Positions 28,753-64,000 are shown, counted from the first letter of the stretch. The stretch: 64,000 bases of DNA from Candidatus Omnitrophota bacterium (GCA_030688425.1 JAUYIB010000007.1:29854-93853), one strand, 5' to 3'. Notes: generated from the sequence alone by a model not told the origin. Translations and numbers: made by a program.

Positions 28753-28803
28753 TCTTTGCTCGCTCCCGGCGGATATGTCCGGACTCTACAGAGGAAGAAT
28801 GAC

Positions 28804-36475: not shown

Positions 36476-36481
36476 ATGTTA

Positions 36482-36610: not shown

Positions 36611-36641
36611 CATTTTACCCTCTTACCTTCTTCGCAGTTTA

Positions 36642-36884
36642 ATGGTCAAATATCAAGTCTCACCTGAAACCCGGCAGATCGTTGTTAACGCGTTGCTGGA
36701 AACAGCGGCGCGTTGGCTGCTTTCTGTGGGCTTTTCTTCTCTGGCGGCTTTTGTGATGAGCAGACGGTTGCGATTGTTCGTTGTGAGGTTGCCTGTCATT
36801 GAGGATGCAGATCCTCGCCGTTTTATTCTTTTCCAGAATGGACATTCTAGAAGAAAAATCAGTCTGGACAATTGCGGGTTTTAA
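36642..36884 (+). CDS. Doubtful 80-codon ORF in the same frame as the giant ORF
   Basis: Listed in the ORF track. It has no clear SD and a basic/hydrophobic composition. It ends at TAA 36882-36884, just one codon before the giant ORF's ATG. Confidence 0.2.
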   Translation: MVKYQVSPETRQIVVNALLETAARWLLSVGFSSLAAFVMSRRLRLFVVRLPVIEDADPRRFILFQNGHSRRKISLDNCGF

Positions 36885-36887
36885 TTT

Positions 36888-39800
36888 ATGACCGACAGAT
36901 TGGACAAAATCGAGGACCAGATCGCTGTTGCTAATGGCAGTAATAGTAATACTGCTATTAGCTCGGAGCTCGCTTTGTCCCCTGAATTTTCTGCCGAACC
37001 AATCCCTTATAAGAGCCGTTTCAAGACCTGGATGAGGGCCGTAGCCCTCCTTGTTGTCATGACGTTTCTGCCCGAGCAGATCAGCTGGGCTTTCAATTAT
37101 AATCCTGCCGTTATTTGGAACATCGAAGATCAGAAATATATTGAACCGGAGTTTTCCAACGTTCAATCCACCTCTGCCGAGCAGATGGTGTCGTTGCGTA
37201 TCGCTGCCGGCATCAAGAATTTCCTGGGCCAAATTGTTGACAAGCAGGACACCCGCGTTCAAATCGCGCTTCCTGGAATTTCTCAGTCCGAAGACCCTTC
37301 CCGCAGCGTTATTGTTGAATCCAAAGTCACGATTTCCCAAGAGCATGTCCGCGATATTGCCGCTTGGTTGCGGGACCCCGCGATCCATCCCCTGAACTGC
37401 GGTGTTTATGCCTTGCGCGACCTTTTGGCGCAGCGCCAGGTGAACGTCAATTTGGAGGATCTTTCCCTGGCCACGCTGCTGGTGGATTTGCTCAATGACA
37501 TTGTCCGCCCCGGAGAGCAAAAGCTCAAAACGTCCCTTTACTCGATTCACCAGATCGTCAATTCCTACGGCCTGGACTTTAAGGCCGTTAAAGTCGACCC
37601 CCAACAGATCCTCAAACTGAACACCCCGTTTATCGCAAATTACGAGTCCGAACATTTTGTCACGGTCAACGCCGTTGATGAAACCAACGTCTATTTCACG
37701 GATATCGGCCGGACAAAAGTTGAGCCCAGGGAAAGTTTTGCCAAGAAATTGAGCGGGTATGTTTTGGCCGCGGATTTGGACAAAACAGATGTGGCTTATG
37801 AGCCGGTATCGGATGCGGCCATGGCGTTTGTCTGGGGGAACAGGTGGGTGAATCATTCTGATGATCTGCCTGGTTTGATGGACGGCGGCGATATCGCGCT
37901 CCAGGTGGGGATGGAGCTTCTCCAATTGGCGATGATCTTCATTTCGCCGATCAGTTTCTTAACATATATCGTTTCGCATATCATGAGCCTCCTGGTGACC
38001 GCCGGTGTCGTGGACCAGGACACGGCGTTTATTGTCACCACGGCCTTTTCCGCGGCGGTGGCGGCCTTCTCAATCATCTCGGCCGGCCTTCAGGCCGCCG
38101 GACAAGCAGGGACAGAAGCGGGGAAGACGGCGGCGACGGAAACAGGGAAAACTGTAGCGACGGAAACGGGAAAAGCGGTGGTCACGGAAACGGGGAAAAC
38201 GGTGGCTGAAAGTGCGGTCGTCACCACCGCTCAGGTTGGCGCACAGACCGCTCTGCAAGCGATCGGGAATATTTTTATCCAAATCGGGAAGGCCATTTGG
38301 GACGCGATCAAGAGCGTGTGGGAGGCGATCAAAGGGATTTTCACGGGCGAGACATTTACGAAGTTGTGGAGCAACATCGCGGACAACTTTACCATGATCG
38401 GGGGAACGTCAGGCGGCGCGGCGGGTGCGGGCGCGCCAGGAGTGACGGGTGCCGTCACAAACGCTGCTTCTTCCAACGCCATGAAGGCCGCGGCCGAAAG
38501 CGCGGCCGCCAAAAGCTTGGCGGGTGCGGCGACTAAATTGACCAGCGGTCAGATCGCGCAGTTGGTGGTGAAGGCTTTGGCCGCAGGCGCGATCAAGGCC
38601 ATTGTGCAGTTGAAATTGCCCGAGATCCTGGAGGAGGCCCTGGGGGATGATTTTGATCCTATCCTGAAGCAGGCGATCGTCGGCATCGCGACTTCGGTGG
38701 GGTCTGAGCTGGCCATGGGGACTTTCGCGGGCATCGCGGACCAGTTCGGTTCGCCGGTCCTGACCCAGGCCATGGGCATGGGCGAGTGGAAATTGGGCGC
38801 GGACGGCAAGACCGGTTATTTTGATCCCAGTTTCGGACAGGGCATTGCCGAGGCGTTAAAATCCATTCCCGAACGTTTCGTGTATGCCGGCATGCGCGCC
38901 TTGGGACAGATCCTTTTGAAAGAAATCGATGAGGAAAAATTTGGTCCTGACACGCTTGCTTCACAGGCATTCGGTGCCATGATCGGTGATCTCGGGGCTC
39001 TCACATTCAGGGCTTTTACGGATGATCTCGGTTTTTCTAATCCGGTGGAAGTGAAAAAGGATGAGAAAGGGTATTACATAGAACACTCCCTCGGCAAGGA
39101 CGCAGAGGGCAAGAGTATAAAAACACAGAAAGAATATATCACAGTTGATCCGGCGAAAGGGGATCACGTCGTCGCGGCCGGGAACACGGGCAGGACGTAT
39201 TTAATGACTGAGAATAAGTTTTTGTCCGCTTTCACGTCCCGGGTGTCCCAGGGGGCGTTTGCTATGGCCGTGGCCTACGGCGTGGATGAGCTCGCGGGCC
39301 GCGACGCCACGGACCAGTTTAAAATGCTTGCCGGCCGCATGATCGGTTTTATGTCGCAACAGGTCGTAACCGCTTTTGGCCCTGTTGTGGTTGATTTCTT
39401 CTCCGGAAAGAATATTGCCGCTCCGGGAAAGAGCGTTGTTGCCGATGGGGAAAACGCACAGTCTGCCCTTCAATACGCAGGCAATAACTTTTTGCATAAC
39501 TTTACGCATTTTGTGGATGACGACCTGGGTTATGGCGGAGCCAGCACTAAGCAGGCCTGGACCAGGAGCGGTTTCTCGAGCCTCCAGCAGTTCTCGCAGT
39601 TTATGGACCATTTTGTGGACGCGACCGGATTCAACCAGCAATGGGCCGAGGGGGTCAAGGATTATCGCAAGCAGCTTGAGAAGCAGAATCAGGAGCGGCC
39701 TGAAGGCGAAAGGTATGACGAAGAAACCATCGACACCATGGTGAATCTCTATGCCATGGAAGCCCATCGGGCTTCTCAAGCCGGATTCTTTAATACCAAA

Positions 39801-54800: not shown

Positions 54801-57800
54801 GCATTTGATCGGTTCCTGGGTGCAACAGCAACCGCAGAATCAACCCGGATGTCCCATGAAATAGAGGGCGTTGAAATTGTCCAGAAAGCGCCGGAAAAAG
54901 ATTATGTGAAAGATGTTAAGCCGGTCTTGGATTCCAGGGCCAGAAAAGGTGAGTCCTATACTGACGCTATTCTGGAGAATTTGTCTAGGCCCGAGTTGAG
55001 CGAGGAAGGGCGGATAACCCTTGCCTCCACATTTTTGGCAAAAGCTGTTGATGATACTGTCAGCCGGCTGCGCTCTAAAGCGCAAGCCGAAGGTCGGGCC
55101 CCTGAGTATATTGAAGGAGAAGAGGCCTATCGGCATCAGCGCGGAGACAAAGAGATTGTTACTCTGGTCGCGCGGGAAGATCCTAATAATCCTGGTTTTC
55201 TGAACGAAGGGAGTGAAAAAGCGGTCAGGTCGTTGATCGAGCGTATTCAGAATAATCCCAATGAAGAAGCGAATATTCTTGTATTGGGGTTGAGCAGCGG
55301 TTCTAACCTGTTGGGTATCGTTGATGCGCTCAAGGTTAAAATCCGGGCAAATCCGGCAGAGGCGCGCAATTTACCTAAAGTCAATGAATTGTTTTTTGGG
55401 ATTGAGGCAGAAGCTGAGATTGGCCAGTTTATGAGCCGCGCTAAAGAAGACCCGCAGACTGGCCGCCTTTCCCCGAGTAAGATTCGGGAAGCGATCATCT
55501 TAATCGAGAATGACCCGCATATACCGAGCGCTGAATATGCTGCTGCAAAAGCTGCTTTGGAAATCGCTGATCCGGCTGCACGAGAGCAGGCTGTGCGCTC
55601 CGCCTTTTCAAGAATGATCCGGGGACATCAAGCCCGGATGGAAGCGAATAGCATCATGGGCAACGTGCATACTACGTCGCAGACTGCTGGAAGAATTTCT
55701 AAGCCGGAATTGCTTGCCAAGCTGGATCAGCATCTCCGTGAAACAGACCAGAGAACAACAAGGGATCATTTGGAGGCGTCTGGGCAGAAGCATGTTCAAG
55801 TGCCGACAACTTCAGGCCAGGGGTATGAAACCTTCGTTCTTTCTTCCTCCAGTCCTGCGGGGATAGAAGCCATCAGCGTCACCAACACGGGCGATGAGAA
55901 CAATAAGCTCATCGGCATCAACCAGACACTGAACTACCGCTCCGGGCTGTTCTATCACAAGGACGACGAAGAGCAGAAGAACCCGATCGCCATGGCCGTC
56001 ACCACCGACGTCGGCGGCAAGCCGCAGACGCAGAAGATGTCGGTCGAGGCGGTGTCCCCGGCCCAGTCTTCGCTCATCGGCGGGACGACAGGGCTGGCCG
56101 TGAAAGTTACCGACGCCAAGATTACCGGGACGCCGGTTTCCCTGGGTGACCAGATTACCTTTACGAAAGGGGTCGGTGTTGTGAGCGCGGCGGGCGCCAG
56201 GGAGCCCAAGACGATTATCGTCGGCGGCCGGTTCGGAGAGCAGATCGGGGCCAATCAGTTCCGCCTGCCGTATGAGGAGGACGGAACCACCACGCTGCAG
56301 CTGGTGCGCAATGACAAGAATGAAATTGCGGATGTCGAACGGGCCACCATTGCGGCCGGCAAAAAAGCTATCGATTTCGGCGGCTTTGTGTTGAGCCCGG
56401 CCCAGACCTGGAACCTCAAAAACAATTTGATCCAGGATGCCAAGGGCCGGAACGTCAAGGCGGTGCGGGCCATTCCGACTGCTCTGGGCGTGACCACCAT
56501 GGCCTTTGATATTGGCGAGACCTATCAGATCGGCAGAGACGTTGTTGACCTCAAAGGAGTGGACGGAGACAAGAGGATCACGGTGGGGATGAGCCCGACC
56601 TATCGGGTGACCGAAAGGGAAGACGGCATGGACGAGCTGGTCCGGCAGGACATTGAACTGCCGCAGGACCGCGTGGAGATCAGGACGCCGGGTGGCGTGT
56701 TAACCTTGAGCAAGGGAGATTATAGGGAAAGCAGCGGCGTTGTCCGCGACAGCAGCGGGAACATCAAGGGGATGATTTTTGACAACGGGCATGCCAGCGC
56801 TGTTTCCAACGGCAAGCTGGTCCTCAGTGATTATTCCAAAGCTGGGGTCGGGCTGAAGATCTCAGCCGGCGTTCAGCAGGCGATCGATAAAGGGAAGGCC
56901 GAGTTTGAAACGATCGAGATGGAAGTCTCTCCGGAGCTCGCGGCGGATAAGCAGTTCGGCGGGCATTTCCTGGATGTTTTAAAAACCGCTAGTGTGAAGG
57001 CAGACGGTACGCGCGTTGTCACAACATCCCCAGTTGCATTGAAATCTTATCTGGACCAGGGCCAGGGTGAGAAATATGTTCAGGAGACATTCCTGGGGGC
57101 TTTGAACAACGCTCCCATCAAGTGGGCTTATAAGGGCCGCGAAGGGCTCAAGGTCACGTCCGTTGCCGATAACCCCGGCAGCCATCCTGTTCTTTCGAAT
57201 GCGGTTCAGACGGCCGCCGCTCATTGGAAAGGCGTGGCCGATAACATGGCGGATGATGAGGTCCTGCCTGTGCAGTTGCGCAGCGGTGAAACGCTGGATC
57301 TGACCCGCGCCCAGATCCAGGCGATGGCGACCCATCTGGCCAAGATGCAGACCGGCGGCGAAACCCTTACGACAGGACAGAAGTCGCACGGCGTGATGAT
57401 GATCGAAGGGTATAGCGCCGAAATCCAGGAAAAGATGGTGGAAGACATCCTGCAGAATCCGGCGGCCTACGAGATCAAGGAAGGATTTACTCCGACACAG
57501 AAACTGCGGATCGCCCATTTTATGGCTGACAAGATGCTCCAGGGACACCAGGGGACCGGCGGCGACGTGACCGGTCGAGAAGGCCGGTACGTGTATCTAT
57601 TCGATGTCGGCCGCCCGGACATCGGAAAGCAGATCTTCAAAGGCAGGGAAGACCTGCTGGGGCGGCTTGAGCAGTCCAAACCGGCCGGGCTTTCCGAAGC
57701 GGATGAAATGGCGATGATCATCGAGCACGAAGCGCTGAGCTTCCTGGGCAAGGAAAGCGACCCGGCCAACAGAGTGACCCTCTCGCACGATGAGGTTGTG

Positions 57801-60800
57801 GACATCCAGAGAGCCCTGGTCGAATTTGATCTCGCTGCCGACAAGTCCGTCTTTAAGAAAAAGGCCGAGCCGGCCGCATACGCTTCCGCGGGCACCGGCA
57901 GAACCATGGGCGCGTCCGAGAAATCAATGTTAAAAAAGCTGACGCCCGTTGCTCCGGCAACTTCCATGGCTGGCCTGCAGACGGCTGCAAAACCTCAGAC
58001 GTTGAGTGTCCAAACAACAACGGCAGATGTCAGTTCCGCCGCCGGCCAGGTGAAGGTGCCGGACATCAAGGCCCCGCCTGCCGGCGTTCAGCCGTCCGCT
58101 GTTCCTCCGGCCGCCCAGATCAAGGCCGCCACCCCGCTTCTTCCTCCGGGTCTGACCCCGGCGATGCTCCCGCTGAATTTAACCCAGGCCCCCAAGTCCG
58201 ACGCGCAGAAGATCGCTTCCGCCCAGCGCCAGGAAAGCCAGAGCCCGTCTTCCTTGCTGATCCGTCCGAGCGTTCCGGAAATTCCGCGCACCCAGTCCCC
58301 TGTTGTGGCCATGGCCTCGGCCGCGCCGCAGATGCAGTCGGTGAAAGGGGCGGCGGTCGCTTCCAGCAACATCTCTGACACGACCGGCCGCGGCAGCCAG
58401 GCGCCTTCGGTGGAACGCCAGACGTCGTTTGTGTCTGCCCAGCTCACCGATCGTTACGGCAACGTTATCGGATCCATGCAGAAGGGCATGAGTTCCACTT
58501 CCGCTCAACCCGGGACGGTCGGCCAGGTCGTCATGGCTTCCCAGAAGGAAGGCGCTCAGCCGCAGCCTGGGATCGACATTTCCAAAGATATGGCCAGCGT
58601 TTTCGGATTGAGACCTGTCGAGCCCGGCGAGCTGTCTTCCATCACGAACCCGCAGGCGTCCAAGGCCACGGCCGCGAGAGACCGGGAGTTGACCTCTCCC
58701 AGAGCCAAGCAGCAGAGAGAGCTGACCAGCGTCCGCGGGAAAGCGAAGACGGCCAAAGATAATTCCATGCTGTCCAAGAAGACAGTCGCCGCCGGAATGT
58801 TGGCCGGGGCTTTGGCGATGAACACACTGGGCGCGGATTTGGATGCCGTCCGTCGCACGACAATTTTTGAGAGACCCACGATCACAAAAGGAACGAATGA
58901 CGCAATCCCGCTGATCGTCAATTTCGGAAGACAAAAAGTCGACGTCTCGGTCATGTACAACTCAAGGAAGAGCATGGATGTTAATGATCCTGCGACCGTC
59001 AAGAAATTGGAGCGTGTCGCCGATGTCTTTGTGCAGGTCCGTGCCTTGGCCCCGGAGGCCTTTCATCTTATTAAGACGATCAGGCTCGATAACACCGATC
59101 TCCAAACCGCACAGGCAGGCCCGGATGACGGTTCCATCGATGTCCATGTGGATGACCTTTTCAAGCTCAACCCCACCAACCGCATGGAACTGGCGATGGG
59201 CCTTAAGGACGGCGAGGAAAAAGCGTTGATCACTGTGATTCATGAATTGGGTCATTTGGTCCAGGGGACCATGACCAAGGCCGAGCAGCGGGAGTGGTCG
59301 AGGTTGTCCTTCCCGAAGGCTACCGCCGGCGATTGGGCCGATGAGGCGTTTGGCCAGGCTTATGCAGATGTTGTGCTGAGAAGAAAAACATCGGTGGATT
59401 ATTATTATCAGCGCGGCAAGCGGGAGATCAAAGATAAAGATCGTGCCAGGGCCGAAAAAGAAAACGCGAAAATGCGCGCTTTCGTTGGCCGCGTCGTTGA
59501 TCGCCGCAAGGCCGCATGGGAAAAACGTTCGGCCTTTAATAATATCCAAAATGATACGGTCGGATTTGTTCAGATCCCGTCGGACATCTCCTGGGGGGAA
59601 GTCAGCCCCCGTATCGGGTCCCCATCGGCTATCGGCGACAAGTCGATGCTGTTGTCAAAGAAGCTGGCCGCCATTAAGAATCCGATATTCGAAGAAGCCG
59701 GGTATCGCATCAATCCGCAGACGCTGTCCATCGAACCGGTTAAATTCAATAGTGATACCGAGAGACGTCAGGCGGTTTCCGCGAAGATTTCCGGCATTTT
59801 GGCCGACCCCAGCCGTTTGACAGCAATTCCAAAGGCCAAGGGCGACGCTGCCAAGGTTGAGACGATCTTAAGGATGGACGGGTATCAACAGCCGTCCGGC
59901 GAAGCTGTCCCGAGTTATATGGAAGTCGTTTCGGTTGACAACACCATGTATGTGCGAATTCCGGCCGTGGACAAGAAAACGGGAGACAGATACGTCAAGG
60001 CGAACGCCGTGGAGCTGGTCGGGTTGTTCAGAAATCTGAGCGGCCAGGAACTCGAAAGCCGTTCGAATTATTCCGGCCGCGAACTTCAGCCCGACACGTA
60101 CTGGGCGCCCAAGAAAGAATACGTCACCAAGCACCAGCCGTATTATCAAGAGAAGATCCACCCCATGGTCGCCCAGGCCATCGGCGCTTCCATCGAAGGC
60201 GGGCAGGTGACATCGCAGGAAGTGGATGTCCTGGATATAGGCGGGCATAACGGTGCGTTTATTGAATCGTTGAACAAGCAGTTGCCGAAAATTTTCCCTG
60301 ACCGGAAATTCAAATTTGAGCTGGTCGAGCGCAATGAGGGCAGTGTCAAGGCCGCCGAGGCCAAATTCAAGGGTGTGAAGAACGTGACCGTCCAGAAGCC
60401 GACGGACTTGACCCAGAAGGGTATTTCCGCCACCGGGCCGAAGGACGTGATCACCGCCATCGGCGTTTTGAACGAGCAGGTCATGTCGGCCGATGATGCA
60501 AGAAGCTTAGCGAAGCAGGCGTATGACACCTTAAAGCCGGGCGGGGTCTTCATCGTGACCGGCGGGACCCGCACGCATTTGACCGTCAGCGACCTGCAGT
60601 CCATGGGCTTTGAGGTCCGCAACACGAGCATCCCGAGCAACGTCGCCATGTTTGAAGGCGTTGAGGATTTGATGATCGCCGTGAAGACCGCCCCCGCTGC
60701 CCGTAGCAGCGCTTTGGCCCGTGCGACAACCAAAGCTGCCGACAAGTCGATGTTGAAGGACATGCGCCTTGCCAATCCGGCGGCGGAAAAGGCGCGCGTT

Positions 60801-63800
60801 GTGAATGTGGTTCGCGCAAATATCCTTGCCAATGGCCGGCTGGTTCAGGACGTGCGGTCCCTGGGCTACACAGCCGACCAGGTCCAGCAGTTTGCCACGC
60901 GCGTGGCCGATCATGTGAGCAATGTTTCCCACACCGAAACGCCGAGTTTCTCCACGACGGGCACTCTGTACCCCTACACCCAGCCGGAAGATCAAATGAA
61001 GCTGTTGCGCGCCGAATTCCGCACGATTATCGAGTCGAAGAAGAACCAGCCGGAGAGGACATTTGATCTTGTGGCGTCCGGGCTCGGCCGCCAGCCGCTT
61101 GAGGCTCAATTGGCGATGAAGGCCTTTTACGACGAATTGAAAGCCGCCGGCCAGAATCCGCAGGATTGGCAGGTCCGGTTCTACGGGATTGATTACAGCG
61201 ATGAATCGCTCAAGGGCGCCATCAAGGAGAACGGAACGAATGTCATTGACGCCTCGACCCGCGGCATGATCAAGATCATGTTCCCCGGACAGAGCATCGG
61301 CGGGAATAACCTCCAGGTCAATATTGTTGCGGCCAACCTGCTGGATGAACAGTCGCTGCGGCAGGCTCTCCCCGGCGTCAAGGCGGATGTGATTCTTGAC
61401 CGCCACACGCATTACGGCAATCATAAGGCCATGTGGGGAGATTTCGACAAGGCCTTGAACGAAGCCGAAGCCCGTAAGCAGCCGGTGAAGAATAATCTGA
61501 ACCTGTTGGGCTTTACGATCGCGGCTGTGCAGTCCAGCAACCTGATCAAGACGGTCGGCCGCGAAGGCACACTGTATGTGACCGAGCCGTATACGACTCA
61601 AAGCGAAGATAACAAATTCGGGGCCGCGGACAACTGGAAGACTGATTTCAAACCGTTTGTGCCGCCGGGGACCGAGCTCATGACCACCAACCGCATCGCC
61701 GCGGAGCTTTCCGCCGTGAATGCCGGAGCGGCTAACAGCCTGGCGTTCTCGACGCGCAATTTCCTGCCGTACGGTACTGGGATAACCCGCGTCGCGGATG
61801 TCAATGCCGTGCGCAACGCGGGTTTAAGAGATTTTCAGAGATCCATGGGTTCGGCTGTTGAAACGGCCCGGATGAGCGATCAGAATTTGAAGCTGGCCAA
61901 GGTCGGCGACAAGAGCCTGCTCACGGCCAAGGTCCAGGAACCGGAGCTTTGGGGCGGGCATGTGCAGACCAGCGTTAAGACTTTGATGAGGGATGGGGAA
62001 AAGATTGGTGAAAAGGTCAGCATGAAGCCCGCGAGCCCGGCTGACGTGACGGCCCACCCGCAGATTGCCGCCAAGAATGTCGTCGCCAATATTGAGCCAG
62101 CCATCACTGCGGGACTCAGGGCCCAGCCGCAGGTGCGCACGCCGGACATCAAAGCGCCTCAGGCGGCCGCAACGAAGATTACGACTACCCCGCTTCTGCC
62201 TCCTGCCGTGGCCACTGCGGCGACATTGAAGCCGGTCACCACCACCTTGCCGCCTGCGCCGGCCACCCTTAAACCTGTGACCACGATTCTGCCGCCCGTG
62301 ATGCCGCAGGCCAAGAAAGACACAGAACAACCCCGGACTGCCGCAATCGCTTCCGCCAGAGCCGGCGATCAGTCGATGTTGCGTAATAAATCCGGCGAAC
62401 CCCGGGAGAAACCGGTCGTGGCCGCAGGATGGAACAAGCTTGTTTCCGATCGGCTGTTGGCCCAGAACAGAAAGATCGCGTGGGAACCCAATGAAACACC
62501 GGAGCAGTTTATCGCGCAAGTCCGGGAGGGGAAGGCGGCGGAAGCCATTAACAGCTTTGTGATACGCAGGAGCGCCGGCGCCGAAGATCATGAAAGAAGG
62601 GATTATCACACGCAGGCCGTCGATTTCGCGGTAACCCAGATGGTCACGGATCGCGATTTCGCGGGGATGGAAAGATTGGTGACCCAATATAACCGGCAAA
62701 ATGTGAACATCAGTCTGCCGACACAACTGATGATCGAATCTTTGGTTGACAATAATCCCGCGCAGGCCTACGGCCGTCTGGCCCAGGCTTCCAGACTCGA
62801 TGAGAACGGCCCTCAACAGATTGTCAGCCTGGATAACATGGTTGGCCATGTCCGTCTGATCAATAAATTCCAGGGTCGGCCGGTCAGCGATCAACAGCTT
62901 GTTCAGGGGATCCGGGAGGGGATTGGGACATTGCCTCAATCCAGGGCCGCCATGGTCGCAGTCCGTGATTTTGACGCCGAGCAAACGCTGGCCCCGGCTG
63001 TCTGGCAATTGCTCAAGCGCCGCGGCCAGGATGCCGATTATCTGCATTTTGAAACCGTGAAAGATAACCTTTATGTGGGGCCGGATCAACAATTGTACTT
63101 GAAAAAAGAGCAGGTGTATCAGACGAAGCCTTTGACGGCCCATATGGACGTCAACAATCCGGTCCGCGAGTATTTTGCCTACAAGATCGGCCGCGCCATC
63201 GGGGCCAACACCACGGAAACAATCATCGCTCCGGAGAAGACCTATTCCAGAATCTCGCTTGATGAGAAAGAGACATTGCCGCAGCCGACGAAAGAACAGG
63301 CGGAGGCGGCTGATTTCGTGCTGAACGTCTTCCTGCGTGTCCCTGATCCTTCGAAAGATTTTGTCCAGAAGTCGAAAGTCGGCGACACCGTCAAGTTCTT
63401 CGATAAGGACCGCGCTTTTGACGATGATTCTGAACCTATGGGCGAAGTGAACGAGCCGCACAGCGGTTATCTGGGTAAGCTCGCTTATTACACCCGGGAA
63501 AATCAGCAGCATTGGAGCGCTCAGGATTTTGACCAGGCCACGATCTGGGAGACGATGGACCGTGTCCAGCAACTGGATATCGAAGACGTCGAGGCAGGAG
63601 CGAAACCCGAAGTCGACAGGCTCGGCACCCACGCCACCAGAGAATTGGCCCAGTATGCGAGCTTCCTGCACCGGACCCGAGGGCCTCAGTTTGAAAATGA
63701 CGTGAGGGCCGCGTTTAAGGCCCTGACCGGCGACGACCTGAAGCCGCGAGAAGTGGCCCTCCGCGAAAGAGCCCTGCGCGAAACCACGCGGCTGGCCTCC

Positions 63801-64000
63801 CAGCCGGTGGATTTGAGGCAGCGCGGCCTTTCCAGCCCCAGGACCGGAGACCAGAGCATATTAAAGGACAAGGCCGAACAGCCGGACTTCTACGGCGGGC
63901 ATTTGTTCACCAGCCGCAGAACCATCAGCCGGATCAGCATCGGCGAGCGTCTCGGGCAGATGTCGAACCTTGAAGCGAAAGTCAACCTGGTCCGGCCGGT
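36888..64000 (+). CDS. Giant multidomain membrane-anchored protein, 3'-partial (>9,037 aa in window)
   Basis: An in-frame TAA at 36882 is followed by ATG 36888. My manual translation of this frame reached 64000 without meeting a stop. All + ORFs in the supplied track within this span lie in the other two frames. The translation is globular-looking and carries several catalytic motifs (see the domain features). No obvious SD is present, so the exact start is uncertain. Confidence 0.9.
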   Translation, partial: MTDRLDKIEDQIAVANGSNSNTAISSELALSPEFSAEPIPYKSRFKTWMRAVALLVVMTFLPEQISWAFNYNPAVIWNIEDQKYIEPEFSNVQSTSAEQMVSLRIAAGIKNFLGQIVDKQDTRVQIALPGISQSEDPSRSVIVESKVTISQEHVRDIAAWLRDPAIHPLNCGVYALRDLLAQRQVNVNLEDLSLATLLVDLLNDIVRPGEQKLKTSLYSIHQIVNSYGLDFKAVKVDPQQILKLNTPFIANYESEHFVTVNAVDETNVYFTDIGRTKVEPRESFAKKLSGYVLAADLDKTDVAYEPVSDAAMAFVWGNRWVNHSDDLPGLMDGGDIALQVGMELLQLAMIFISPISFLTYIVSHIMSLLVTAGVVDQDTAFIVTTAFSAAVAAFSIISAGLQAAGQAGTEAGKTAATETGKTVATETGKAVVTETGKTVAESAVVTTAQVGAQTALQAIGNIFIQIGKAIWDAIKSVWEAIKGIFTGETFTKLWSNIADNFTMIGGTSGGAAGAGAPGVTGAVTNAASSNAMKAAAESAAAKSLAGAATKLTSGQIAQLVVKALAAGAIKAIVQLKLPEILEEALGDDFDPILKQAIVGIATSVGSELAMGTFAGIADQFGSPVLTQAMGMGEWKLGADGKTGYFDPSFGQGIAEALKSIPERFVYAGMRALGQILLKEIDEEKFGPDTLASQAFGAMIGDLGALTFRAFTDDLGFSNPVEVKKDEKGYYIEHSLGKDAEGKSIKTQKEYITVDPAKGDHVVAAGNTGRTYLMTENKFLSAFTSRVSQGAFAMAVAYGVDELAGRDATDQFKMLAGRMIGFMSQQVVTAFGPVVVDFFSGKNIAAPGKSVVADGENAQSALQYAGNNFLHNFTHFVDDDLGYGGASTKQAWTRSGFSSLQQFSQFMDHFVDATGFNQQWAEGVKDYRKQLEKQNQERPEGERYDEETIDTMVNLYAMEAHRASQAGFFNTKFAGGIISPDQYSAGGIVEGMKTTLEYIFSAIILSYSPTSRVEDPATGQMVANPDSKAVKIFRDWLGFTYRPILKRASRDGKTNVVEEYVCAPGQPCRGHTAGNKDVLFLFTKFSGKGMNNYFFNFEADQTVIDTPWVNLETGEMYVISGEYQSWFGGAADETFKTADGQSHRFIGGGGEAETAWDNDRHDKKISGVPENMSSLGIASYGHSALYSEGAVAYTAEKDGDRIVTSAASSTNYVGSDGTMNTQFSQFNPWSGKKPTGDDSFLLALAAALFAGVDPATGRFIVDQDAVNRDPAGAVGALFDLARGLFPDDANLAYKTTDENGNTVIQTSNNLVLALIENTTRVIDKSKKFIQDRGEPIIYSDESQGVYAMAAPADANETAGILAEAKGKGMYAWVGSGPEDEGKIFISSQGLKESVNETVITIAPNTELGKALSRAVRGVEGTETQSVQTTWMRLGTDGLPDRRFIIADRLLQNSWETFKDGHEEAPVFIPTMKAGELALSAGLGEILPSLQNTLDLIKKEPGKSIVFEGEGDLAQKLPGTKLSVEAQVAALKKFKEAVAAQSGVGASPEEWPEGDYSTDKLVTVLQGANYSPEKIAEAMAKPPAEQAVMIAEVDASFQLEPADPRVKNERLAEFRKEAIDQVVADTSVKQGFGAALNDNPDQVNLKVADKPLFLNDYGQAYFEGQTTILDSENRPVVVGNVNTVISLSGSRETRGEDSIRTVFTLANPNGNPTVVNENGEIVDLGSGVKAQGIAQGEGVTFGDLYQGYFGVKPSGANTVYLAEAFYTVKEGTGEIEAGRVYSKYANGSINREAYGLVTSGAEKGDSFTFSMVGEYINRAGEKSGTEGASGSSVVKAEIIDTNVQLLTAQDGAAVLLDNRPKAAAKDGQASTGGNQPGAYEIHPFSLMVRDFNAMLGPGSVIVYGSQFGQSPRSDDEKIKNAIVKVNDDGRVTFYLNGKEATLAFDGKIFHVTPPTAVIRAAKPTAAGQAAVATAEVIFGKDSLAAMALTTVLGTEYVTQVAKLEGMLQDAEVLLGDASGRTHSGPFAVMVEDQVKTKVSGKAFYTASPVIEQTAVSLLGGTKKDQMVLTVDPDYIAPNADASKVHSSGISGTGSQLIFTEQGTVEGVFSGVVNAVGPAVTTAPNAWTMEAAPVTTAVFPIFMMIPLLGKVQNPDDQKKDQSILAKSGQKKEGYDIVGIFDELDPVGTETVNGQAWNIYEVDISQKSFSGQLFAGEATGNNAQNFVGVEVVQNADGTITHKAKLMPQGKDIVFNREGAGQGRVTYQADPFQYGFGSRTTGEDGREKITYASMTQSLDSFYLENRQESMITPNATNSNDRVVKLNDEGDVASVDAGLFKNSLFVGGVRKEGQDAAAPLVNAINAFLPGGAQLSLPEGLEFSVPVSQQLTYMGNGAISIKDGQLVVLDGSETMIVSEEGTKSSLVNGGQDMVKMRQTRVGYQKDGIQEYSVLIQTEYPEVLSGGEVTGSKAKLVLPAAAGLMREVSAERDYTQPNLNNADVQPDFDIVRGDVKVSGSDILLAGQVWGKVTPFWSQDGDIASSYIKVQFGQVADTYNPFNVDIKIEQLESFMKAVDKTYRGGAATAEQLQSGMKEAGYKISNDDATKLAKVFNESRAANTPEAREAFKQASQQVLNDKNENPAAQGQGPPGEVALVGHVPGTEYNFFTAADPSQFRPTGDSATSPTQPNAPGMDSQSNTNRPPSKIEAPAPQAADNQGQMDMLALAKPTVLPELPPESPVQPEQQPDASQSEKLLRSAADILKNWTNSMGAAAGDNLGEPFPAESDRPATLILGNVISNRAALKPSADGSGVDSLTIQGDGVVPETKETSEFAKAAETGQPFLTMQMEKDPATGQNVFRINGKNVDPKVMNEFAQSFSEYVSSQSKGDVQILVSNDSSSTTVIPQATVTGGELAMAGSAPNAGAAQSEAPLTPEKQKLMNFLNNPSSQLTPAVPIAAGELTEVPGGSPSSMGASDKASPDQQIPEGVEGGLVFRLGQWDAKRGRNVFTGFVTHAPGGIGSYYGIDKSAADTATGIPTTLSFQSSTYSDSVKISLYRKDANSTDSRFVGIYIDDKGQKIPFNMKNYAGLGVIEGLKYGLTDLASNRQALDENFVFAVSEFAKIFNSYGFAGSKDAPFEAFLQGMKNKQEGQTPYNFGENFVNALVQAEMTHAIELYKKALSSRDMKEYNAYKNKKIDALALPLAEALGLNSNDQLKTEVKNLVWQQLLELEGRIRMGGADVAGYASAEDSVKPGLQEFRNIQFAKTEKEIGSFTTSGSDGRDILAAIPKEEMAEINKLALAQDVREIAAQAGDETARQAVLNNPSLSEDGKVNLVKGILDISSPASLEEAKQRVLNDPSLSADQKAGLANKSPEEVALAQPDLWLKNSASAAQVALVRSDLWAGIGTAKLVLTAADGSPIRRNQTDTNMMGDLALVTKNDEGKYVYLNDQGEKVVTETLPANAQALMFYNPQKKLNGAQTGEGFINWQFAGGEARVLKDGVDGGVWGPANWTFVEGPDGNALTETKTGLILVNEKGTPVLQNGQFVHLTKRDDGNFVDAEGNVVPGNGFVGPLQPGQALAKVAPLGIYLTGAQQGVSTAALSDGSGWNENAGIGQKIRFNDQGAWNLLLENGRVVLPGDYSTMNKVGDAGALGTGLGFFSPNTPQGKGGANQEPKLSLTPHVAKDGILDNGNIVAALGQGIANGGKDSTAGLEFVGLNMVRGRAQFASTLGQQGVSISADQNEVNAARRWLTTLGQGGGEELTMMATGQKLIIMPTLPVLERKINQIRAAKTDGVVVDTDTQRMGVVSKKDFNAAPDAKLGFKTPVRSGQLIVQGTVKGEDGKNKIVFKVIDAERLMGAPEKWIQGTFLNPKSGKTEIVYVRASDWEQRNLTDRLNIPYQGEYGGFRHTHALVTIAGLSKQFELEEMKAELVSEGGIRAGMRVDQLLYAAEDDVTGSDNIDMYLTDAKGHRVAGTKVSVDIGEIKLGTTDAEVAFNGHQVELARGVSLEDVLAGREATQAEWERGFEVSWYQKLWRSDNRIVRVPVADESGNVSYLYREVDDGTFEGKIKGEPIEISSLDYFGENANVRLANESAAVGFWGHLFDSFDTDRNDDNMVAASFDAGGNAHVGIIDFEPTLLGHLVTDEYADSKTGDVVVARGVLNRDDGVKEFFKTGDSADTMATWIGSIDAITAPITVALALTGVGNLANAGKEGAKQAGIRMATEMVKRKLATDAAKILLSETGKAVGRVGLNYAKNYLVISGVSLGLEEAITYHYTGGLMSSDNVVRSLLLSHGFTAAARGLKTVALAEQLKTLQAAAQTSKFFNTPARAAASSLAITTAATTGVSIAGEIVSKGGWDRADVKTAAIRGALLGPVVFSSIYGGSKLVAFSGGGIADYGKLALQTAVLPGVTYGAYGFGTSIADDVQAGREISFADAAFKGGKYGLWAMGVGAGLTLGSRGVLAFSKSGKSLVAVAKTVKTPAMQPYNSLTSAQKFAYVRNVILWRAAGGGAGLAAGNAYSLATRGDFLPTDANIAAFAAGAIFIKLRNPKQYFAAGIQRLGGVTVAGEGAAASKIPILAIPKMVSHGATGFAGAGVLWEGTKGVIGGVARYIDGDPGMYSKAEQFDSKFQLMSTYANTIGGGMSAGLWMGPLIGFAMAGAKTHFGNLVMENQGFVGTTSLVIRAARNGFRPGTVEKLATQYTKTNSSNWLHKALGLTKTAAGELEGNYLAKQVAMVDHLAVFLGATDILNAVNSDALTALALEDPEMAKKISGDHHPLSQKGQEEIMKTAGEIALWEAIVLLPQPGGWPQAKGPRAPPELGYHDGPGYHDGPGYHGSGEGKGQPRTFRDAFGYFREGEDSFAYRERRSPTLLQDPQAQLDPKKEIDRYLGTLPEGERAELDSYSQQAGPMHPDTEAVVAVPVAGHQEAKNIYRTLSNFADQRDSRGSRINPNSFEILLFVNHPEGTSAEATLAEVARFKQDNPNVNVRVVHQTFGAGEFTIGRVRKSTTDLVLKRSQERPEGSDKEVVIISNDADMKSMSPIYISSVVEAFKANPRADAMLGKIDWDNAAYEKSPFVHIGTRMFQYLDAIYRGKHKRIGSSGANYAFRGSTYSAVGGYFRSDRITEDVRLGELFRSARGGNRDSYRGRFLYGSAKMEIQTDARRAMDAVARGLSPAEQWSGGNFGANDALRMKDWLAGEGFDLAQIRTPAFRAKLQDMFRRTLYEYHPNFGPAERRVLGFMGIEYTLEKASRVSPEGQNAVKQRIAELDAQRLAALEKGNTEGAGKIEGQISDLSNIVKRMQEVTTLPVFTDVSKLAAGLEGWHQARGNKPASPERGPAPSTGPPSGKGGRETQGFAFDNGQQKTTRFAEGNGETWQGVVDGHTQGLDASIHAGLKNGTIQRRTVTYQGSKYRTYEFFDVKTGEVKLRIFRGNGVNRYEYVDPSAETTMGRKGGGYVSLAPRDAIGTRQGKDKIVIVHDGSEAVRNHEMTEARVILQQRSFRDGRMRASSAEHARNLTEKDSHDYVADVVGFRGEETSRFSGMLRPVEPAMSGPRMERVQPPAMAPPVEAPLFRLPTTNAPLLPPGLSRGRASEGREVIAFASDNFDSKKEPTKDRADRLAKAAKDLYAGKPIQDAGLSPKETKYAKEIHSIMRTMEAEGDGKGGSISLKGRDEQVFNIASFYVTAKETGKITVSSDTGSGKSEAALGVIKHFQRSDPDLTIVAAFPQKVVGEVVGRADMAGANDGRVNKKFEKGKINVTSLDGVFEVLHETVRTGEKLDSRRTILLVDETDKLFRHSSHVTGSREEGSALLELQKEGNPQATRAVESLDRNMRQFQQANQSLEEMVAEKGLHQVLVNDGFNVTFKSESGRKEFLQRFRSRLSGEQEAVPEAELLKRADALAKEVWEGMYPGQKPDANSQNGFVLYKEGGFTAPNTIPSDRTAAQAKVVRSGGTLEHFINATMSETRNPTTAHDVVNAFDRFLGATATAESTRMSHEIEGVEIVQKAPEKDYVKDVKPVLDSRARKGESYTDAILENLSRPELSEEGRITLASTFLAKAVDDTVSRLRSKAQAEGRAPEYIEGEEAYRHQRGDKEIVTLVAREDPNNPGFLNEGSEKAVRSLIERIQNNPNEEANILVLGLSSGSNLLGIVDALKVKIRANPAEARNLPKVNELFFGIEAEAEIGQFMSRAKEDPQTGRLSPSKIREAIILIENDPHIPSAEYAAAKAALEIADPAAREQAVRSAFSRMIRGHQARMEANSIMGNVHTTSQTAGRISKPELLAKLDQHLRETDQRTTRDHLEASGQKHVQVPTTSGQGYETFVLSSSSPAGIEAISVTNTGDENNKLIGINQTLNYRSGLFYHKDDEEQKNPIAMAVTTDVGGKPQTQKMSVEAVSPAQSSLIGGTTGLAVKVTDAKITGTPVSLGDQITFTKGVGVVSAAGAREPKTIIVGGRFGEQIGANQFRLPYEEDGTTTLQLVRNDKNEIADVERATIAAGKKAIDFGGFVLSPAQTWNLKNNLIQDAKGRNVKAVRAIPTALGVTTMAFDIGETYQIGRDVVDLKGVDGDKRITVGMSPTYRVTEREDGMDELVRQDIELPQDRVEIRTPGGVLTLSKGDYRESSGVVRDSSGNIKGMIFDNGHASAVSNGKLVLSDYSKAGVGLKISAGVQQAIDKGKAEFETIEMEVSPELAADKQFGGHFLDVLKTASVKADGTRVVTTSPVALKSYLDQGQGEKYVQETFLGALNNAPIKWAYKGREGLKVTSVADNPGSHPVLSNAVQTAAAHWKGVADNMADDEVLPVQLRSGETLDLTRAQIQAMATHLAKMQTGGETLTTGQKSHGVMMIEGYSAEIQEKMVEDILQNPAAYEIKEGFTPTQKLRIAHFMADKMLQGHQGTGGDVTGREGRYVYLFDVGRPDIGKQIFKGREDLLGRLEQSKPAGLSEADEMAMIIEHEALSFLGKESDPANRVTLSHDEVVDIQRALVEFDLAADKSVFKKKAEPAAYASAGTGRTMGASEKSMLKKLTPVAPATSMAGLQTAAKPQTLSVQTTTADVSSAAGQVKVPDIKAPPAGVQPSAVPPAAQIKAATPLLPPGLTPAMLPLNLTQAPKSDAQKIASAQRQESQSPSSLLIRPSVPEIPRTQSPVVAMASAAPQMQSVKGAAVASSNISDTTGRGSQAPSVERQTSFVSAQLTDRYGNVIGSMQKGMSSTSAQPGTVGQVVMASQKEGAQPQPGIDISKDMASVFGLRPVEPGELSSITNPQASKATAARDRELTSPRAKQQRELTSVRGKAKTAKDNSMLSKKTVAAGMLAGALAMNTLGADLDAVRRTTIFERPTITKGTNDAIPLIVNFGRQKVDVSVMYNSRKSMDVNDPATVKKLERVADVFVQVRALAPEAFHLIKTIRLDNTDLQTAQAGPDDGSIDVHVDDLFKLNPTNRMELAMGLKDGEEKALITVIHELGHLVQGTMTKAEQREWSRLSFPKATAGDWADEAFGQAYADVVLRRKTSVDYYYQRGKREIKDKDRARAEKENAKMRAFVGRVVDRRKAAWEKRSAFNNIQNDTVGFVQIPSDISWGEVSPRIGSPSAIGDKSMLLSKKLAAIKNPIFEEAGYRINPQTLSIEPVKFNSDTERRQAVSAKISGILADPSRLTAIPKAKGDAAKVETILRMDGYQQPSGEAVPSYMEVVSVDNTMYVRIPAVDKKTGDRYVKANAVELVGLFRNLSGQELESRSNYSGRELQPDTYWAPKKEYVTKHQPYYQEKIHPMVAQAIGASIEGGQVTSQEVDVLDIGGHNGAFIESLNKQLPKIFPDRKFKFELVERNEGSVKAAEAKFKGVKNVTVQKPTDLTQKGISATGPKDVITAIGVLNEQVMSADDARSLAKQAYDTLKPGGVFIVTGGTRTHLTVSDLQSMGFEVRNTSIPSNVAMFEGVEDLMIAVKTAPAARSSALARATTKAADKSMLKDMRLANPAAEKARVVNVVRANILANGRLVQDVRSLGYTADQVQQFATRVADHVSNVSHTETPSFSTTGTLYPYTQPEDQMKLLRAEFRTIIESKKNQPERTFDLVASGLGRQPLEAQLAMKAFYDELKAAGQNPQDWQVRFYGIDYSDESLKGAIKENGTNVIDASTRGMIKIMFPGQSIGGNNLQVNIVAANLLDEQSLRQALPGVKADVILDRHTHYGNHKAMWGDFDKALNEAEARKQPVKNNLNLLGFTIAAVQSSNLIKTVGREGTLYVTEPYTTQSEDNKFGAADNWKTDFKPFVPPGTELMTTNRIAAELSAVNAGAANSLAFSTRNFLPYGTGITRVADVNAVRNAGLRDFQRSMGSAVETARMSDQNLKLAKVGDKSLLTAKVQEPELWGGHVQTSVKTLMRDGEKIGEKVSMKPASPADVTAHPQIAAKNVVANIEPAITAGLRAQPQVRTPDIKAPQAAATKITTTPLLPPAVATAATLKPVTTTLPPAPATLKPVTTILPPVMPQAKKDTEQPRTAAIASARAGDQSMLRNKSGEPREKPVVAAGWNKLVSDRLLAQNRKIAWEPNETPEQFIAQVREGKAAEAINSFVIRRSAGAEDHERRDYHTQAVDFAVTQMVTDRDFAGMERLVTQYNRQNVNISLPTQLMIESLVDNNPAQAYGRLAQASRLDENGPQQIVSLDNMVGHVRLINKFQGRPVSDQQLVQGIREGIGTLPQSRAAMVAVRDFDAEQTLAPAVWQLLKRRGQDADYLHFETVKDNLYVGPDQQLYLKKEQVYQTKPLTAHMDVNNPVREYFAYKIGRAIGANTTETIIAPEKTYSRISLDEKETLPQPTKEQAEAADFVLNVFLRVPDPSKDFVQKSKVGDTVKFFDKDRAFDDDSEPMGEVNEPHSGYLGKLAYYTRENQQHWSAQDFDQATIWETMDRVQQLDIEDVEAGAKPEVDRLGTHATRELAQYASFLHRTRGPQFENDVRAAFKALTGDDLKPREVALRERALRETTRLASQPVDLRQRGLSSPRTGDQSILKDKAEQPDFYGGHLFTSRRTISRISIGERLGQMSNLEAKVNLVRP
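37330..37780 (+). other. Giant ORF domain: C39-like papain-fold cysteine peptidase
   Basis: HPLNCGVYALRDLL has its Cys codon at 37398-37400. NYESEHFVTVNAV has its His codon at 37653-37655, 85 residues later. YFTDIG supplies an Asp 16 residues after the His. This spacing is as in bacteriocin-processing C39 peptidases. A TM helix (WMRAVALLVVMTFL) precedes it and hydrophobic helices (37890-38100) follow. Confidence 0.55.
38112..38207 (+). repeat. Four tandem 24-nt coding repeats (T-E-[AT]-G-K-x-[AV]-x)
   Basis: The units are ACAGAAGCGGGGAAGACGGCGGCG, ACGGAAACAGGGAAAACTGTAGCG, ACGGAAACGGGAAAAGCGGTGGTC and ACGGAAACGGGGAAAACGGTGGCT. All are in frame in the giant ORF. Confidence 0.85.
49420..50860 (+). 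other. Giant ORF region: Gly/Ala-rich hydrophobic block (about ten candidate membrane helices)
   Basis: Candidate segments include ITAPITVALALTGVGNLA, AAIRGALLGPVVFSSIYGG, YGLWAMGVGAGLTLGSRGVLAF, ILWRAAGGGAGLAAGNAYSLA, IAAFAAGAIFIKL and IGGGMSAGLWMGPLIGFAMAGA. This is judged by eye, not by a TM predictor. Confidence 0.45.
51600..52440 (+). other. Giant ORF domain: GT-A fold (GT2-like) glycosyltransferase with DxD
   Basis: AVVAVPVAGHQEAKNIYRTLSNF is a beta1-type start. VVIISNDADM carries the D-A-D at 51966-51974. GANYAFRGSTYSAVGGY and ITEDVRLG also match conserved GT2-family motifs. Confidence 0.55.
53850..55500 (+). other. Giant ORF domain: SecA-motor-like / SF2 helicase-like P-loop ATPase
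   Basis: Walker A is SSDTGSGKSE (53958-53981). A DExD-like Walker B is ILLVDETD (54225-54245). A motif III-like GATATAES lies at 54819-54842. The order and spacing recall the SecA DEAD motor (..TGEGKT.., ..VDEvDS.., ..GMTGTA.TE..). Confidence 0.5.
58900..59420 (+). other. Giant ORF domain: zincin-like metallopeptidase (HELGH)
   Basis: ALITVIHELGHLVQG has HEXXH at 59241-59255, in a ~170-aa segment bounded by two DxSML motifs. Confidence 0.45.
60190..60700 (+). other. Giant ORF domain: class I SAM-dependent methyltransferase
   Basis: Motif I is VLDIGGHNG (60228-60254). The acidic post-I is FELVERN. LKPGGVFIV is also present. This is the Rossmann methyltransferase order. Confidence 0.6.
61060..61610 (+). 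other. Giant ORF domain: second methyltransferase-like module (CheR-type topology)
   Basis: FDLVASGLGRQPLEAQLAM..., WQVRFYGIDYSDESLKGAIKENG and NIVAANLLDEQSL...ADVILDRHTHYG parallel the CheR pattern (WSAGCSTGEEPYSlAm / I.ATDI....L..A..G / F...NLL....fD.IFCRNV.IYF). The SAM-binding residues are not conserved in an obvious way. Confidence 0.35.

Follow-up and report, generated by a model that had tools for sequence, protein, structure and literature searches.

The window analyzed here is a 64,000-nucleotide stretch of DNA (one strand, 5' to 3') from a Candidatus Omnitrophota bacterium (GCA_030688425.1, JAUYIB010000007.1:29854-93853), and the positions given below are counted from its first letter. 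Downstream of a Tad-type pilus/secretion gene cluster, the window is occupied up to its end by one giant open reading frame (ORF) on the + strand, which begins with a membrane anchor and a peptidase C39 domain (Table 1). A TAA is present at 36882-36884, an ATG at 36888, and the 9,037 codons that extend from there to 63998 are free of in-frame stops; the window sequence contains no Ns. An earlier reading made from the sequence alone (the sequence-only reading) had described such a frame, stop-free to the window end, and our translation, with 0 stops in 9,037 codons, is in agreement. The frame is by far the longest open stretch of the window, the runner-up having 1,389 codons. Over 36888-64000, the other two + frames contain 301 and 407 stops, and their longest open runs are 197 and 184 codons. 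From the base composition, the probability of 9,037 consecutive stop-free codons is ~1e-160. The GC contents of the three codon positions (GC1>GC2<GC3, about 0.58/0.44/0.67) follow a constant pattern across 18 of 18 blocks of 1.5 kb, and the pattern is the same as that of dnaA, gyrB, and gyrA in the window. The antisense ORF at 43376-40260 (1,039 codons) had been regarded as a shadow of the forward frame, and it displays the properties of one: it lies in the only stop-poor minus frame (57 stops), its translation is rich in Arg, Leu, and Gly, and its codon third positions fall on the codon first positions of the giant frame. The giant frame is coding throughout. Its homologues open with the same N terminus, M-x-D-[RK]-L-D, which supports translation initiation at ATG 36888.

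Table 1. Features of the giant ORF and of the region upstream of it (window coordinates; aa, amino acid residues of the encoded protein; TM, transmembrane; SAM, S-adenosylmethionine)
Feature	Position	Strand	Basis or remark
Tad-type pilus/secretion cluster	15408..35459	+	Pfam and gene calls; synteny with the giant gene across the phylum
Gap between TadC and the giant ATG	35460..36887	.	1.4 kb, no called gene, lower GC
Giant ORF, first 9,037 codons	36888..64000	+	Open at window end; at least 22,241 codons in the Logan contig
Basic stretch, TM1 (aa 51-69), and signature PEQxSWAFNYNP	37014..37112	+	Hydropathy, conservation; predicted membrane anchor of the N-terminal module
Peptidase C39 (double-glycine-protease type), aa 160-300	37365..37787	+	PF03412
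Putative catalytic residues	Cys171 37398-37400; His256 37653-37655; Asp272 37701-37703	+	Invariant
TM hairpin (aa 344-363, 379-400, strongly hydrophobic), then Gly/Ala/Thr-rich stretch	37893..38087	+	Hydropathy
~3,600 aa (residues ~600-4180) with no recognizable domain	38685..49427	+	No Pfam/NCBIfam match
Second hydrophobic region, ~8 weak Gly/Ala-rich segments (aa 4183-4750)	49434..51137	+	Hydropathy
GT2-type (GT-A fold) glycosyltransferase, predicted, aa 4845-5245	51420..52622	+	Homologues, model, Foldseek
P-loop ATPase, SF2/DEAD-like, predicted, aa 5650-6300	53835..55787	+	Motifs, profile match
Module chain with 7 linker copies, aa 7010-8987	57915..63863	+	[GASK][DE][KQN]S[MIL]L, then basic residues
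Linker copies	57915-57932, 58755-58772, 59634-59651, 60738-60755, 61905-61922, 62364-62381, 63846-63863	+	Pattern
Pro/Ala/Ser/Thr-rich spacer 1	57933..58754	+	PDIKAP 58059-58076, PLLPPGL 58134-58148
Module with HExxH	58773..59633	+	HELGH 59241-59255, the protein's sole HExxH; motif only
Class I SAM-dependent methyltransferase module	59652..60737	+	Pfam match 60231-60551 (aa ~7782-7888)
Module with no recognizable domain, aa 7957-8339	60756..61904	+	PDB matches non-significant (E about 1 or higher)
Pro-rich spacer 2	61923..62363	+	PDIKAP 62142-62159, PLLPPAV 62190-62204; homologous to spacer 1
Module with no recognizable domain, aa 8499-8986	62382..63845	+	PDB matches non-significant (E about 1 or higher)

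The sequence-only reading had placed the C terminus beyond the window, giving a protein of at least ~9,000 residues, and extension of the contig is consistent with this. Logan contig SRR13727534_7920 (82,550 bp) is 100% identical to the window over the compared overlap (23544-44398), and the gene call for the giant ORF on this contig is 22,241 aa (at least 66.7 kb), still open at the contig end. A contig from an NCBI metagenome-assembled genome (MAG), JAXMJX010000112.1 (GCA_034376285.1), is also 100% identical over the compared overlap (25642-36292). As these two assemblies probably stem from one shared read set or sample, the identity demonstrates independence of the assembler and not of the sample. 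Repeated DNA within the giant ORF is limited to two tandem arrays (96 nt and 44 nt) and one 40-nt pair, and collapse or chimerism of the assembly via repeats is therefore unlikely.

Homologues of the N-terminal region are found throughout the phylum. All 26 database matches to aa 1-1000 carry PF03412, and those with a named source are labelled Omnitrophota/Omnitrophica, with the exception of one labelled Elusimicrobia. A search with the pattern SWA[FM][NG]YNP yielded 66 loci, from 66 GTDB species genomes. Almost all of these genomes are Omnitrophota MAGs; for a few, the bin title is Planctomycetales, Elusimicrobia, or Caldithrix, which is taken here to reflect the labelling of bins rather than real distribution. 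The best identity in GTDB was 52%, indicating that the species of the window is not among the GTDB representatives for this region. Among 69 related loci, the C39 frame is open to the end of the compared DNA in ~60, corresponding to at least 3,600-4,100 codons wherever a 10-kb flank exists, and in ~50 of the 69, homologues of TadB, TadC, and a large ORF designated orf1388 are situated directly upstream of the C39 module. Across the phylum, such ORFs begin with the same conserved arrangement of TM segment, C39 domain, and TM hairpin. In seven loci (L003, L004, L005, L040, L051, L052, and L068), the C39 frame runs for 116-2,265 codons before a stop, with more large ORFs beyond it. Of these loci, at least L003 and L068 are on contigs with long-read-style names, so that frameshift errors may explain some of the splits; split versions could be real in some relatives. 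The earlier claim of one uninterrupted gene thus holds for the commonest layout of the family and does not extend to the minority of relatives, in which a stop terminates the C39 module and separate ORFs make up the remainder. In L005, the Tad genes are downstream of the C39 gene and on the opposite strand.

The split loci would also be in line with an artefact, in which errors of assembly or sequencing, or read-through of stops, have made several ordinary genes appear as one. Sequencing errors, however, create stops and frameshifts and do not remove them, and they may themselves account for at least the two split relatives mentioned above. Together with the minute chance of a frame of this length, the agreement of three assemblies, and the same open architecture in ~60 independent genomes, this makes an artefact highly improbable.

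In aa 1-9037, only two domains score above the Pfam thresholds, Peptidase_C39 and a SAM-dependent methyltransferase. They cover ~190 of the 9,037 residues; when profile and fold methods are added, only ~15% of the protein is reached and ~85% is left with no recognizable domain, in accordance with the sequence-only reading, which had found most of the protein unrecognizable. BLASTP detected no internal protein repeats.

The protein has no cleavable signal peptide at its N terminus, and basic residues precede TM1. Among 19 aligned sequences, S43, F45, P62, Q64, S66, W67, Y71, and P73 are invariant. The match to PF03412 (aa 212-295) has an E value of 1.4e-10 and a score of 41.5 bits against a cut-off of 22. 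C171 (in the context N-C-G), H256 (E-H-F-V), and D272 are invariant in 19 of 19 sequences, and the catalytic His and Asp align with those of the LahT150 protease domain (PDB 6MPZ; E, 0.005). The spacing of 16 between His and Asp is the same as in ComA (His96/Asp112). Given the invariant Cys/His/Asp and the alignment of His and Asp to 6MPZ, the C39 protease is probably active. A search of PDB with the profile of the N-terminal module returned none at E<0.01, and the NCBIfam matches on this module were limited to the peptidase parts of bacteriocin ATP-binding cassette (ABC) exporters, with no ABC transmembrane or nucleotide-binding domain accompanying the C39 domain. The domain thus shares with the C39 domains of PCAT/AMS proteins (LahT150, 6MPZ) the Pfam family, the aligned His and Asp, and the Cys in an N-C-G context, but it is flanked by TM segments within a giant protein and is not fused to an ABC transporter. 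The C39 domain is followed by a WGxKW...LPG element and then by the TM hairpin. Beyond the hairpin, an in-frame tandem repeat, (T)ETGK(T/A)(V/A)A, is present in four copies (38111-38206).

The long region without recognizable domains has weak collinear similarity, at 24-38% identity, to the giant ORFs of the closest relatives only. In tblastn searches, aa 1808-2593, 2981-3181, and 3462-3963 matched L070, L010, and L008 with their order kept, indicating that the region is inherited and fast-evolving rather than random. It is followed by the second hydrophobic region (aa 4183-4750), which, judged by hydropathy, is possibly membrane-embedded.

The glycosyltransferase domain of ~400 aa had 44 homologues (P0027-P0070; 30-44% identity), all of which matched aa 4845-5245. 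It contains a DxD motif in the sequence SNDAD (51960-51974), and S-N-D-A-D is invariant in 16 of 16 sequences. Seven of the 16 aligned members match GT2-type Pfam families, the best being Glyco_trans_2_3 (E, 1.4e-5), and the sequence from the window is below the Pfam GT2 cut-off (13.6 bits versus 27); the domain belongs to a divergent subfamily. NCBIfam gave a weak match to the EpsD glycosyltransferase, and a PDB sequence search with the profile of the domain gave a single, spurious match (E, 0.099). An AlphaFold model built on the family alignment had a pLDDT of 81 and a pTM of 0.83, and Foldseek related this model, with a probability of 1.0 and E values of ~1e-8, to chondroitin polymerase K4CP, PcManGT, and hyaluronan, chitin, and cellulose synthases. 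Elsewhere, members of this well-conserved GT2-like family are parts of proteins 850-2,430 aa long, in some cases as fusions with Ser/Thr protein kinase domains, and two of the proteins (P0027 and P0028) carry two tandem copies of the domain each. Two homologues are named as deriving from the candidate phyla radiation (CPR; Candidatus Daviesbacteria and Candidatus Saccharibacteria), bacteria that are likewise host-dependent. An in-frame GYHDGP repeat (2.4 copies, 51330-51373) is found just ahead of the domain.

The predicted ATPase contains a Walker A motif (DTGSGKS, aa 5691), a Walker B motif (VDETD, aa 5782), and a sequence resembling motif III (TATAES, aa 5980). The best PDB match of its profile was DEAD domain 1 of DDX52 (E, 0.0038), which supports a superfamily 2 (SF2)/DEAD-like ATPase; Pfam SecA_DEAD was not matched in this region, even at E<5. 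An AlphaFold model from the single sequence reached a pLDDT of 38.6 and was not used. When 1.84 billion representatives were searched exhaustively, only three relatives were found, all of them fragments on contigs of 4.5-5.5 kb: P0071 and P0073, which are partial Omnitrophota proteins, and P0072, which is from a separate JGI metagenome and is ~25% identical in the ATPase domain. A stretch with 24% identity to the ATPase region is also present in the giant ORF of locus L004. GC3 at 53388-55900, which includes the ATPase, is 0.56-0.60, compared with 0.61-0.73 in the remaining giant ORF, and the GC content of 54001-56000 is 0.51. A separate origin of this module, or constraints of its own, could account for the drop.

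The last part of the protein within the window is a chain of modules separated by a short recurring linker motif. The seven copies read SEKSML, KDNSML, GDKSML, ADKSML, GDKSLL, GDQSML, and GDQSIL, with Lys or Arg within a few residues after each, and they are 150-570 aa apart. A relaxed form of the pattern had eight matches in the protein, against an expectation of 0.03 derived from 2,000 shuffles, and no other reading frame of the window contained a match. The copies coincide with the boundaries of two Pro-rich spacers, the HExxH module, the methyltransferase module, and two modules without recognizable domains. The eighth match (aa 2156) and a supposed TM helix at aa 2128-2146 were set aside as chance occurrences, since neither is retained at the orthologous site in L070 or L010.

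Among the modules, that with HExxH opens with a hydrophobic segment resembling a signal peptide (aa 7300-7318) and is a possible Zn-metallopeptidase on the basis of the motif; the module has no Pfam or PDB match. The methyltransferase module matches PF08242 (E, 8.6e-8; 33.3 bits against a cut-off of 30) and, weakly, PDB entry 3DTN (E, 0.016). A 40-nt direct repeat (at 58047 and 62130) joins spacers 1 and 2, and a third PLLPP is found just ahead of the ATPase region. In P0072, PDFRAP, PLAPL, and ADTAML occur in the same order within 35 residues, and 0 of 20,000 shuffles reproduced such a composite. Because the sequence of P0072 was already known when the patterns were widened, this figure overstates the evidence. 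In 66 relatives, the first ~3,700 aa do not contain the linker motif; this is uninformative because the motif is positioned late in the protein of the window. No homologues of aa 7290-8500 were found in a large protein index, and JGI metagenomes queried with aa 8493-9037 and with the glycosyltransferase domain provided neither an extension of the gene nor close relatives. The protein indexes returned nothing longer than 2,427 aa, not even the 22,241-aa call of this very gene. Very long or contig-truncated proteins are seemingly under-represented in them, and failures to find homologues for segments of the giant should be read accordingly.

The linker motif bears on the notion of several genes as well, as each copy is followed by a sequence resembling an N terminus (for example, MLKK, or MLSKK plus a hydrophobic stretch). 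The fifth residue of the motif is Met, Leu, or Ile, and "GD," encoded by GGN-GAY, could mimic a Shine-Dalgarno sequence 7 nt upstream. Internal translation starts at the motif were nevertheless rejected: the upstream bases are mostly GGCGAC, compared with GGAGG-type sequences at real genes, and two of the seven "start" codons, at 61917 and 63858, are CTG or ATA. The Ser of the motif is encoded by TCN as well as AGC codons, which, together with the upstream bases that do not resemble a Shine-Dalgarno sequence, indicates conservation at the peptide level.

An alternative explanation would be a polyprotein, cut at the linkers by its own C39 protease or by the HExxH module; the separate enzymes set free (glycosyltransferase, ATPase, and methyltransferases) would act in or on a host or prey cell. 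The linker motif fits this explanation best, as seven copies lie exactly between modules (aa 7010-8987) and are conserved as peptide and not as DNA, and as the spacers share PDIKAP and PLLPP, with a similar composite in the same order in P0072. The intact catalytic residues of C39, the extreme scarcity of Cys in the chain (see below), as for exported proteins, and the cofactors of the enzymes, which exist only inside cells and would fit action in the host cytoplasm, are also consistent with it, and cleavage has been suspected in the literature (West-Roberts et al., 10.1101/2023.11.21.568195). On the other hand, the residues at P2-P1 are IG, VG, AG, TG, AA, AS, and AK and do not constitute a double-glycine leader, which is the known specificity of C39 proteases; a double-glycine leader substrate was not identified for the C39 domain, and the linker motifs have no GG site. 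The post hoc nature of the composite test, the absence of the motif from the relatives' N-terminal regions, and the absence of Pfam matches to a C80-type autoprocessing domain or RTX repeats also speak against a polyprotein, which we consider unlikely. The more specific proposal, that in the C-terminal part of the protein the composite linker PD[IF][KR]AP...PL[LA]PP...[GA]D[KQ]S[MI]L plus basic residues represents self-cleavage sites for a Tad-aided delivery of enzymes, perhaps in Omnitrophota giants generally, is to be given still less credence.

A Kyte-Doolittle analysis predicted three strong TM helices near the N terminus, ~8 weak segments within aa 4183-4750, and a single segment near aa 7300. 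Only three Cys residues are present in 9,037 aa, one of them being the catalytic Cys171. The Cys content of cytoplasmic proteins encoded in the window is 0.95%, and the depletion in the giant protein has a P value of ~4e-33; the giant ORFs of the relatives contain 0.2%. Extreme scarcity of Cys is typical of exported proteins. A further explanation would be a membrane-tethered cytoplasmic scaffold, with most of the chain, short loops excepted, on the cytoplasmic side of the membrane. It would be an uncut line of enzymes of the "TM-only" class, engaged, for example, in the synthesis or modification of envelope glycans. The GT2 domain, P-loop ATPase, and SAM-dependent methyltransferase would all use cytoplasmic cofactors, the structural neighbours of the GT2 domain are membrane-associated polysaccharide synthases, and the lack of a cleavable signal peptide along with the basic residues before TM1 suggests that the N terminus is inside. 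Among the catalogued long Omnitrophota proteins, 46% are predicted to be TM-only (Nielsen and Lui, 10.64898/2026.06.07.730766). Against a scaffold stand a Cys content ~30-fold below that of the cytoplasmic proteins of the same genome segment, the tight and wide synteny with a pilus/secretion system, and the location of C39 between TM1 and the hairpin, as an N terminus inside would put C39 outside. In addition, peptides of the 39,678-aa protein of Velamenicoccus archaeovorus increase in host-attached cells (Seymour, PMC10066038). We regard a scaffold as rather unlikely, if a shade more plausible than a polyprotein.

The region upstream of the giant gene corresponds to the chromosomal origin region and the Tad-type cluster. 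Positions 1-11452 contain parB, parA, jag, and yidC on the - strand and dnaA, dnaN, the gene for DciA, gyrB, and gyrA on the + strand; gyrA is followed by a tRNA-Glu gene, the only Rfam family in the window, and a few metabolic genes. The first 2 kb of the window are low in GC (0.41). The Tad cluster includes genes for a Rotamase_2 peptidyl-prolyl isomerase (PPIase), RcpC/CpaB, a secretin, a T2SSE ATPase, small proteins with class III signal or similar to Flp, and two T2SSF proteins (TadB/TadC), along with several ORFs without a Pfam match, including orf1388. The secretin and T2SSE genes (17370-19319 and 19364-21550) are both unusual fusions: the secretin carries TonB_C at its C terminus, and the CpaF-like ATPase has a ParA/CpaE-like domain joined to its N terminus. 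The product of orf1388 (28756-32922, ~1,370-1,390 aa), which has no Pfam match, contains 55 Cys (4.0%), compared with 0.03% in the adjoining giant. Homologues of orf1388 are present in ~50 related loci (for example, L003:2081-6211), where they are syntenic with TadB/TadC and the giant gene. The gap between TadC and the giant gene is likely its promoter and leader region and could hold regulatory elements for it; a promoter-like site at 36447-36475 matches the consensus at 10/12 positions only, and the gap has no Rfam match. In the relatives inspected, gaps of 0.3-1.2 kb are found at the equivalent place.

Giant ORFs of this kind have been described in Omnitrophota. ORFs of >20 kb are present in 77 of 116 Velamenicoccia genomes and in most genomes of some Omnitrophota classes (Seymour, PMC10066038), and the ORF studied here exceeds this length (27.1 kb of it lie in the window, and the Logan contig extends it to at least 66.7 kb). 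A catalogue of proteins of at least 10,000 aa lists 5,761, the longest being 147,155 aa (Nielsen and Lui, 10.64898/2026.06.07.730766). The sequence-only reading had ranked the protein among the largest in bacteria, which is valid outside Omnitrophota and not within the phylum, where such ORFs are common (PMC10066038; 10.64898/2026.06.07.730766). The set of West-Roberts et al. comprises ORFs of >90 kb, with 46 examples of >30,000 aa; the length of ours is known as at least 22,241 aa, at which point the contig ends. These authors reported an N-terminal C39 domain near a signal or anchor, many TM helices, and divergent domains of the SecA DEAD helicase and preprotein-binding type. They found the giants to be preceded by a secretion system of >10 subunits, including gspD/E/F-like genes, rcpC, a Rotamase_2 PPIase gene, and genes with class III signal peptides (10.1101/2023.11.21.568195). 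All of the reported neighbour genes are found in the Tad cluster of the window. In V. archaeovorus LiM, the Tad locus is at 12-30 kb of the chromosome record (PMC10066038), and an origin-proximal Tad cluster followed by a giant ORF is common to that genome and the window.

With Archaeovorin, the type of which is the 39,678-aa protein of V. archaeovorus LiM, the protein shares the phylum, an ORF of tens of kilobases, an N-terminal C39 domain beside a membrane anchor, glycosyltransferase and methyltransferase modules, a divergent DEAD-like ATPase, and mostly unannotatable, fast-evolving sequence. The Archaeovorin type is described as containing glycosyltransferases and methyltransferases, with HEAT/TPR, GT5/GT1, glycoside hydrolase, and NUDIX domains being frequent (10.1101/2023.11.21.568195); the glycosyltransferase in our case is GT2-like rather than GT5/GT1. 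Nielsen and Lui distinguish a "multi-enzyme" class and a C39 architecture cluster, with secretion/pilus flanks in 13 of the 14 largest examples (10.64898/2026.06.07.730766). Non-repetitive modules, a membrane anchor, Tad/type II secretion system flanks, and C39 as the defining Pfam domain are shared with this multi-enzyme/PF03412 cluster. Their largest examples have 21-50 Pfam families, compared with two here, placing our protein nearer the "Pfam-dark" end. As for the dockerin-type giants, aa 1-9037 have no Pfam match to dockerin or TSP3 and, as noted, no internal repeats. MARTX and the large clostridial toxins are comparable by analogy only: they too are very large, Cys-poor, and modular, with a cysteine protease, a hydrophobic region, and a cofactor-dependent GT-A domain, and their modules are cut at short linker sites. 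This likeness is one of mode of action and not a family tie, as no relationship in sequence or fold was found and Pfam detected no C80 protease, RTX, or CROP repeats. They differ in that the protease here is C39 and not C80 and the export system Tad-like and not type I, and the giant is at least 4 times larger.

Taken together, it is very probable that the window holds the first 27 kb of one genuine Omnitrophota giant gene of at least 66.7 kb, belonging to the published class that follows Tad clusters. How the protein works can be proposed more tentatively. The N-terminal helices would insert it into the cell membrane, with the long N-terminal part exposed outside, and the enzymes that use nucleoside diphosphate sugars, ATP, and SAM would be situated behind the second hydrophobic region (aa 4183-4750), where their cofactors exist. 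The conserved linkers between modules would be places at which the chain is cut or docked. The protein may then act with the co-inherited Tad machinery at the envelope during the attachment of this small bacterium to a host or prey cell, or its attack on one, a role earlier proposed for the expressed 39,678-aa protein of V. archaeovorus. Taken as a whole, this mechanism of a membrane-inserted protein of mixed topology acting with the Tad machinery falls somewhat short of an even chance in our estimation.

Several observations weigh against the single-gene assignment and this mechanism. The C39 module ends at a stop in seven relatives, and a single polypeptide is thus not universal; the assemblies that are 100% identical were probably built from a single read set; HEAT, TPR, GT1/GT5, NUDIX, and glycoside hydrolase domains are all absent from the Pfam and NCBIfam matches in aa 1-9037; and the SecA-like label given in the literature to the counterpart of the ATPase could not be confirmed. 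The proposed topology relies on simple hydropathy, by which only three helices are strong. The clues to location also conflict, as the cofactor-dependent enzymes would point to the cytoplasm and the depletion of Cys along the entire chain to the outside.

As a giant ORF, the gene adds little to what is known, since thousands have been catalogued in Omnitrophota, and its neighbourhood and domain content fit the published description. The sole element that is possibly new is the linker motif, which might mark candidate processing sites; it is not described in the passages on cleavage and linkers of West-Roberts et al. or of Nielsen and Lui. Cleavage of the giants is suspected and information on the cleavage points is lacking (West-Roberts et al., 10.1101/2023.11.21.568195), and the motif provides a concrete candidate for the places of processing, a question that the field itself has raised. 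If the composite linker did represent self-cleavage sites, it would supply these missing points. The TM-C39 module behind orf1388-TadB-TadC is a simple marker with which giant genes can be found and oriented in fragmented assemblies. Finally, the near absence of Cys, combined with enzymes that would depend on cytoplasmic cofactors, sharpens the question of where the modules of these proteins work.

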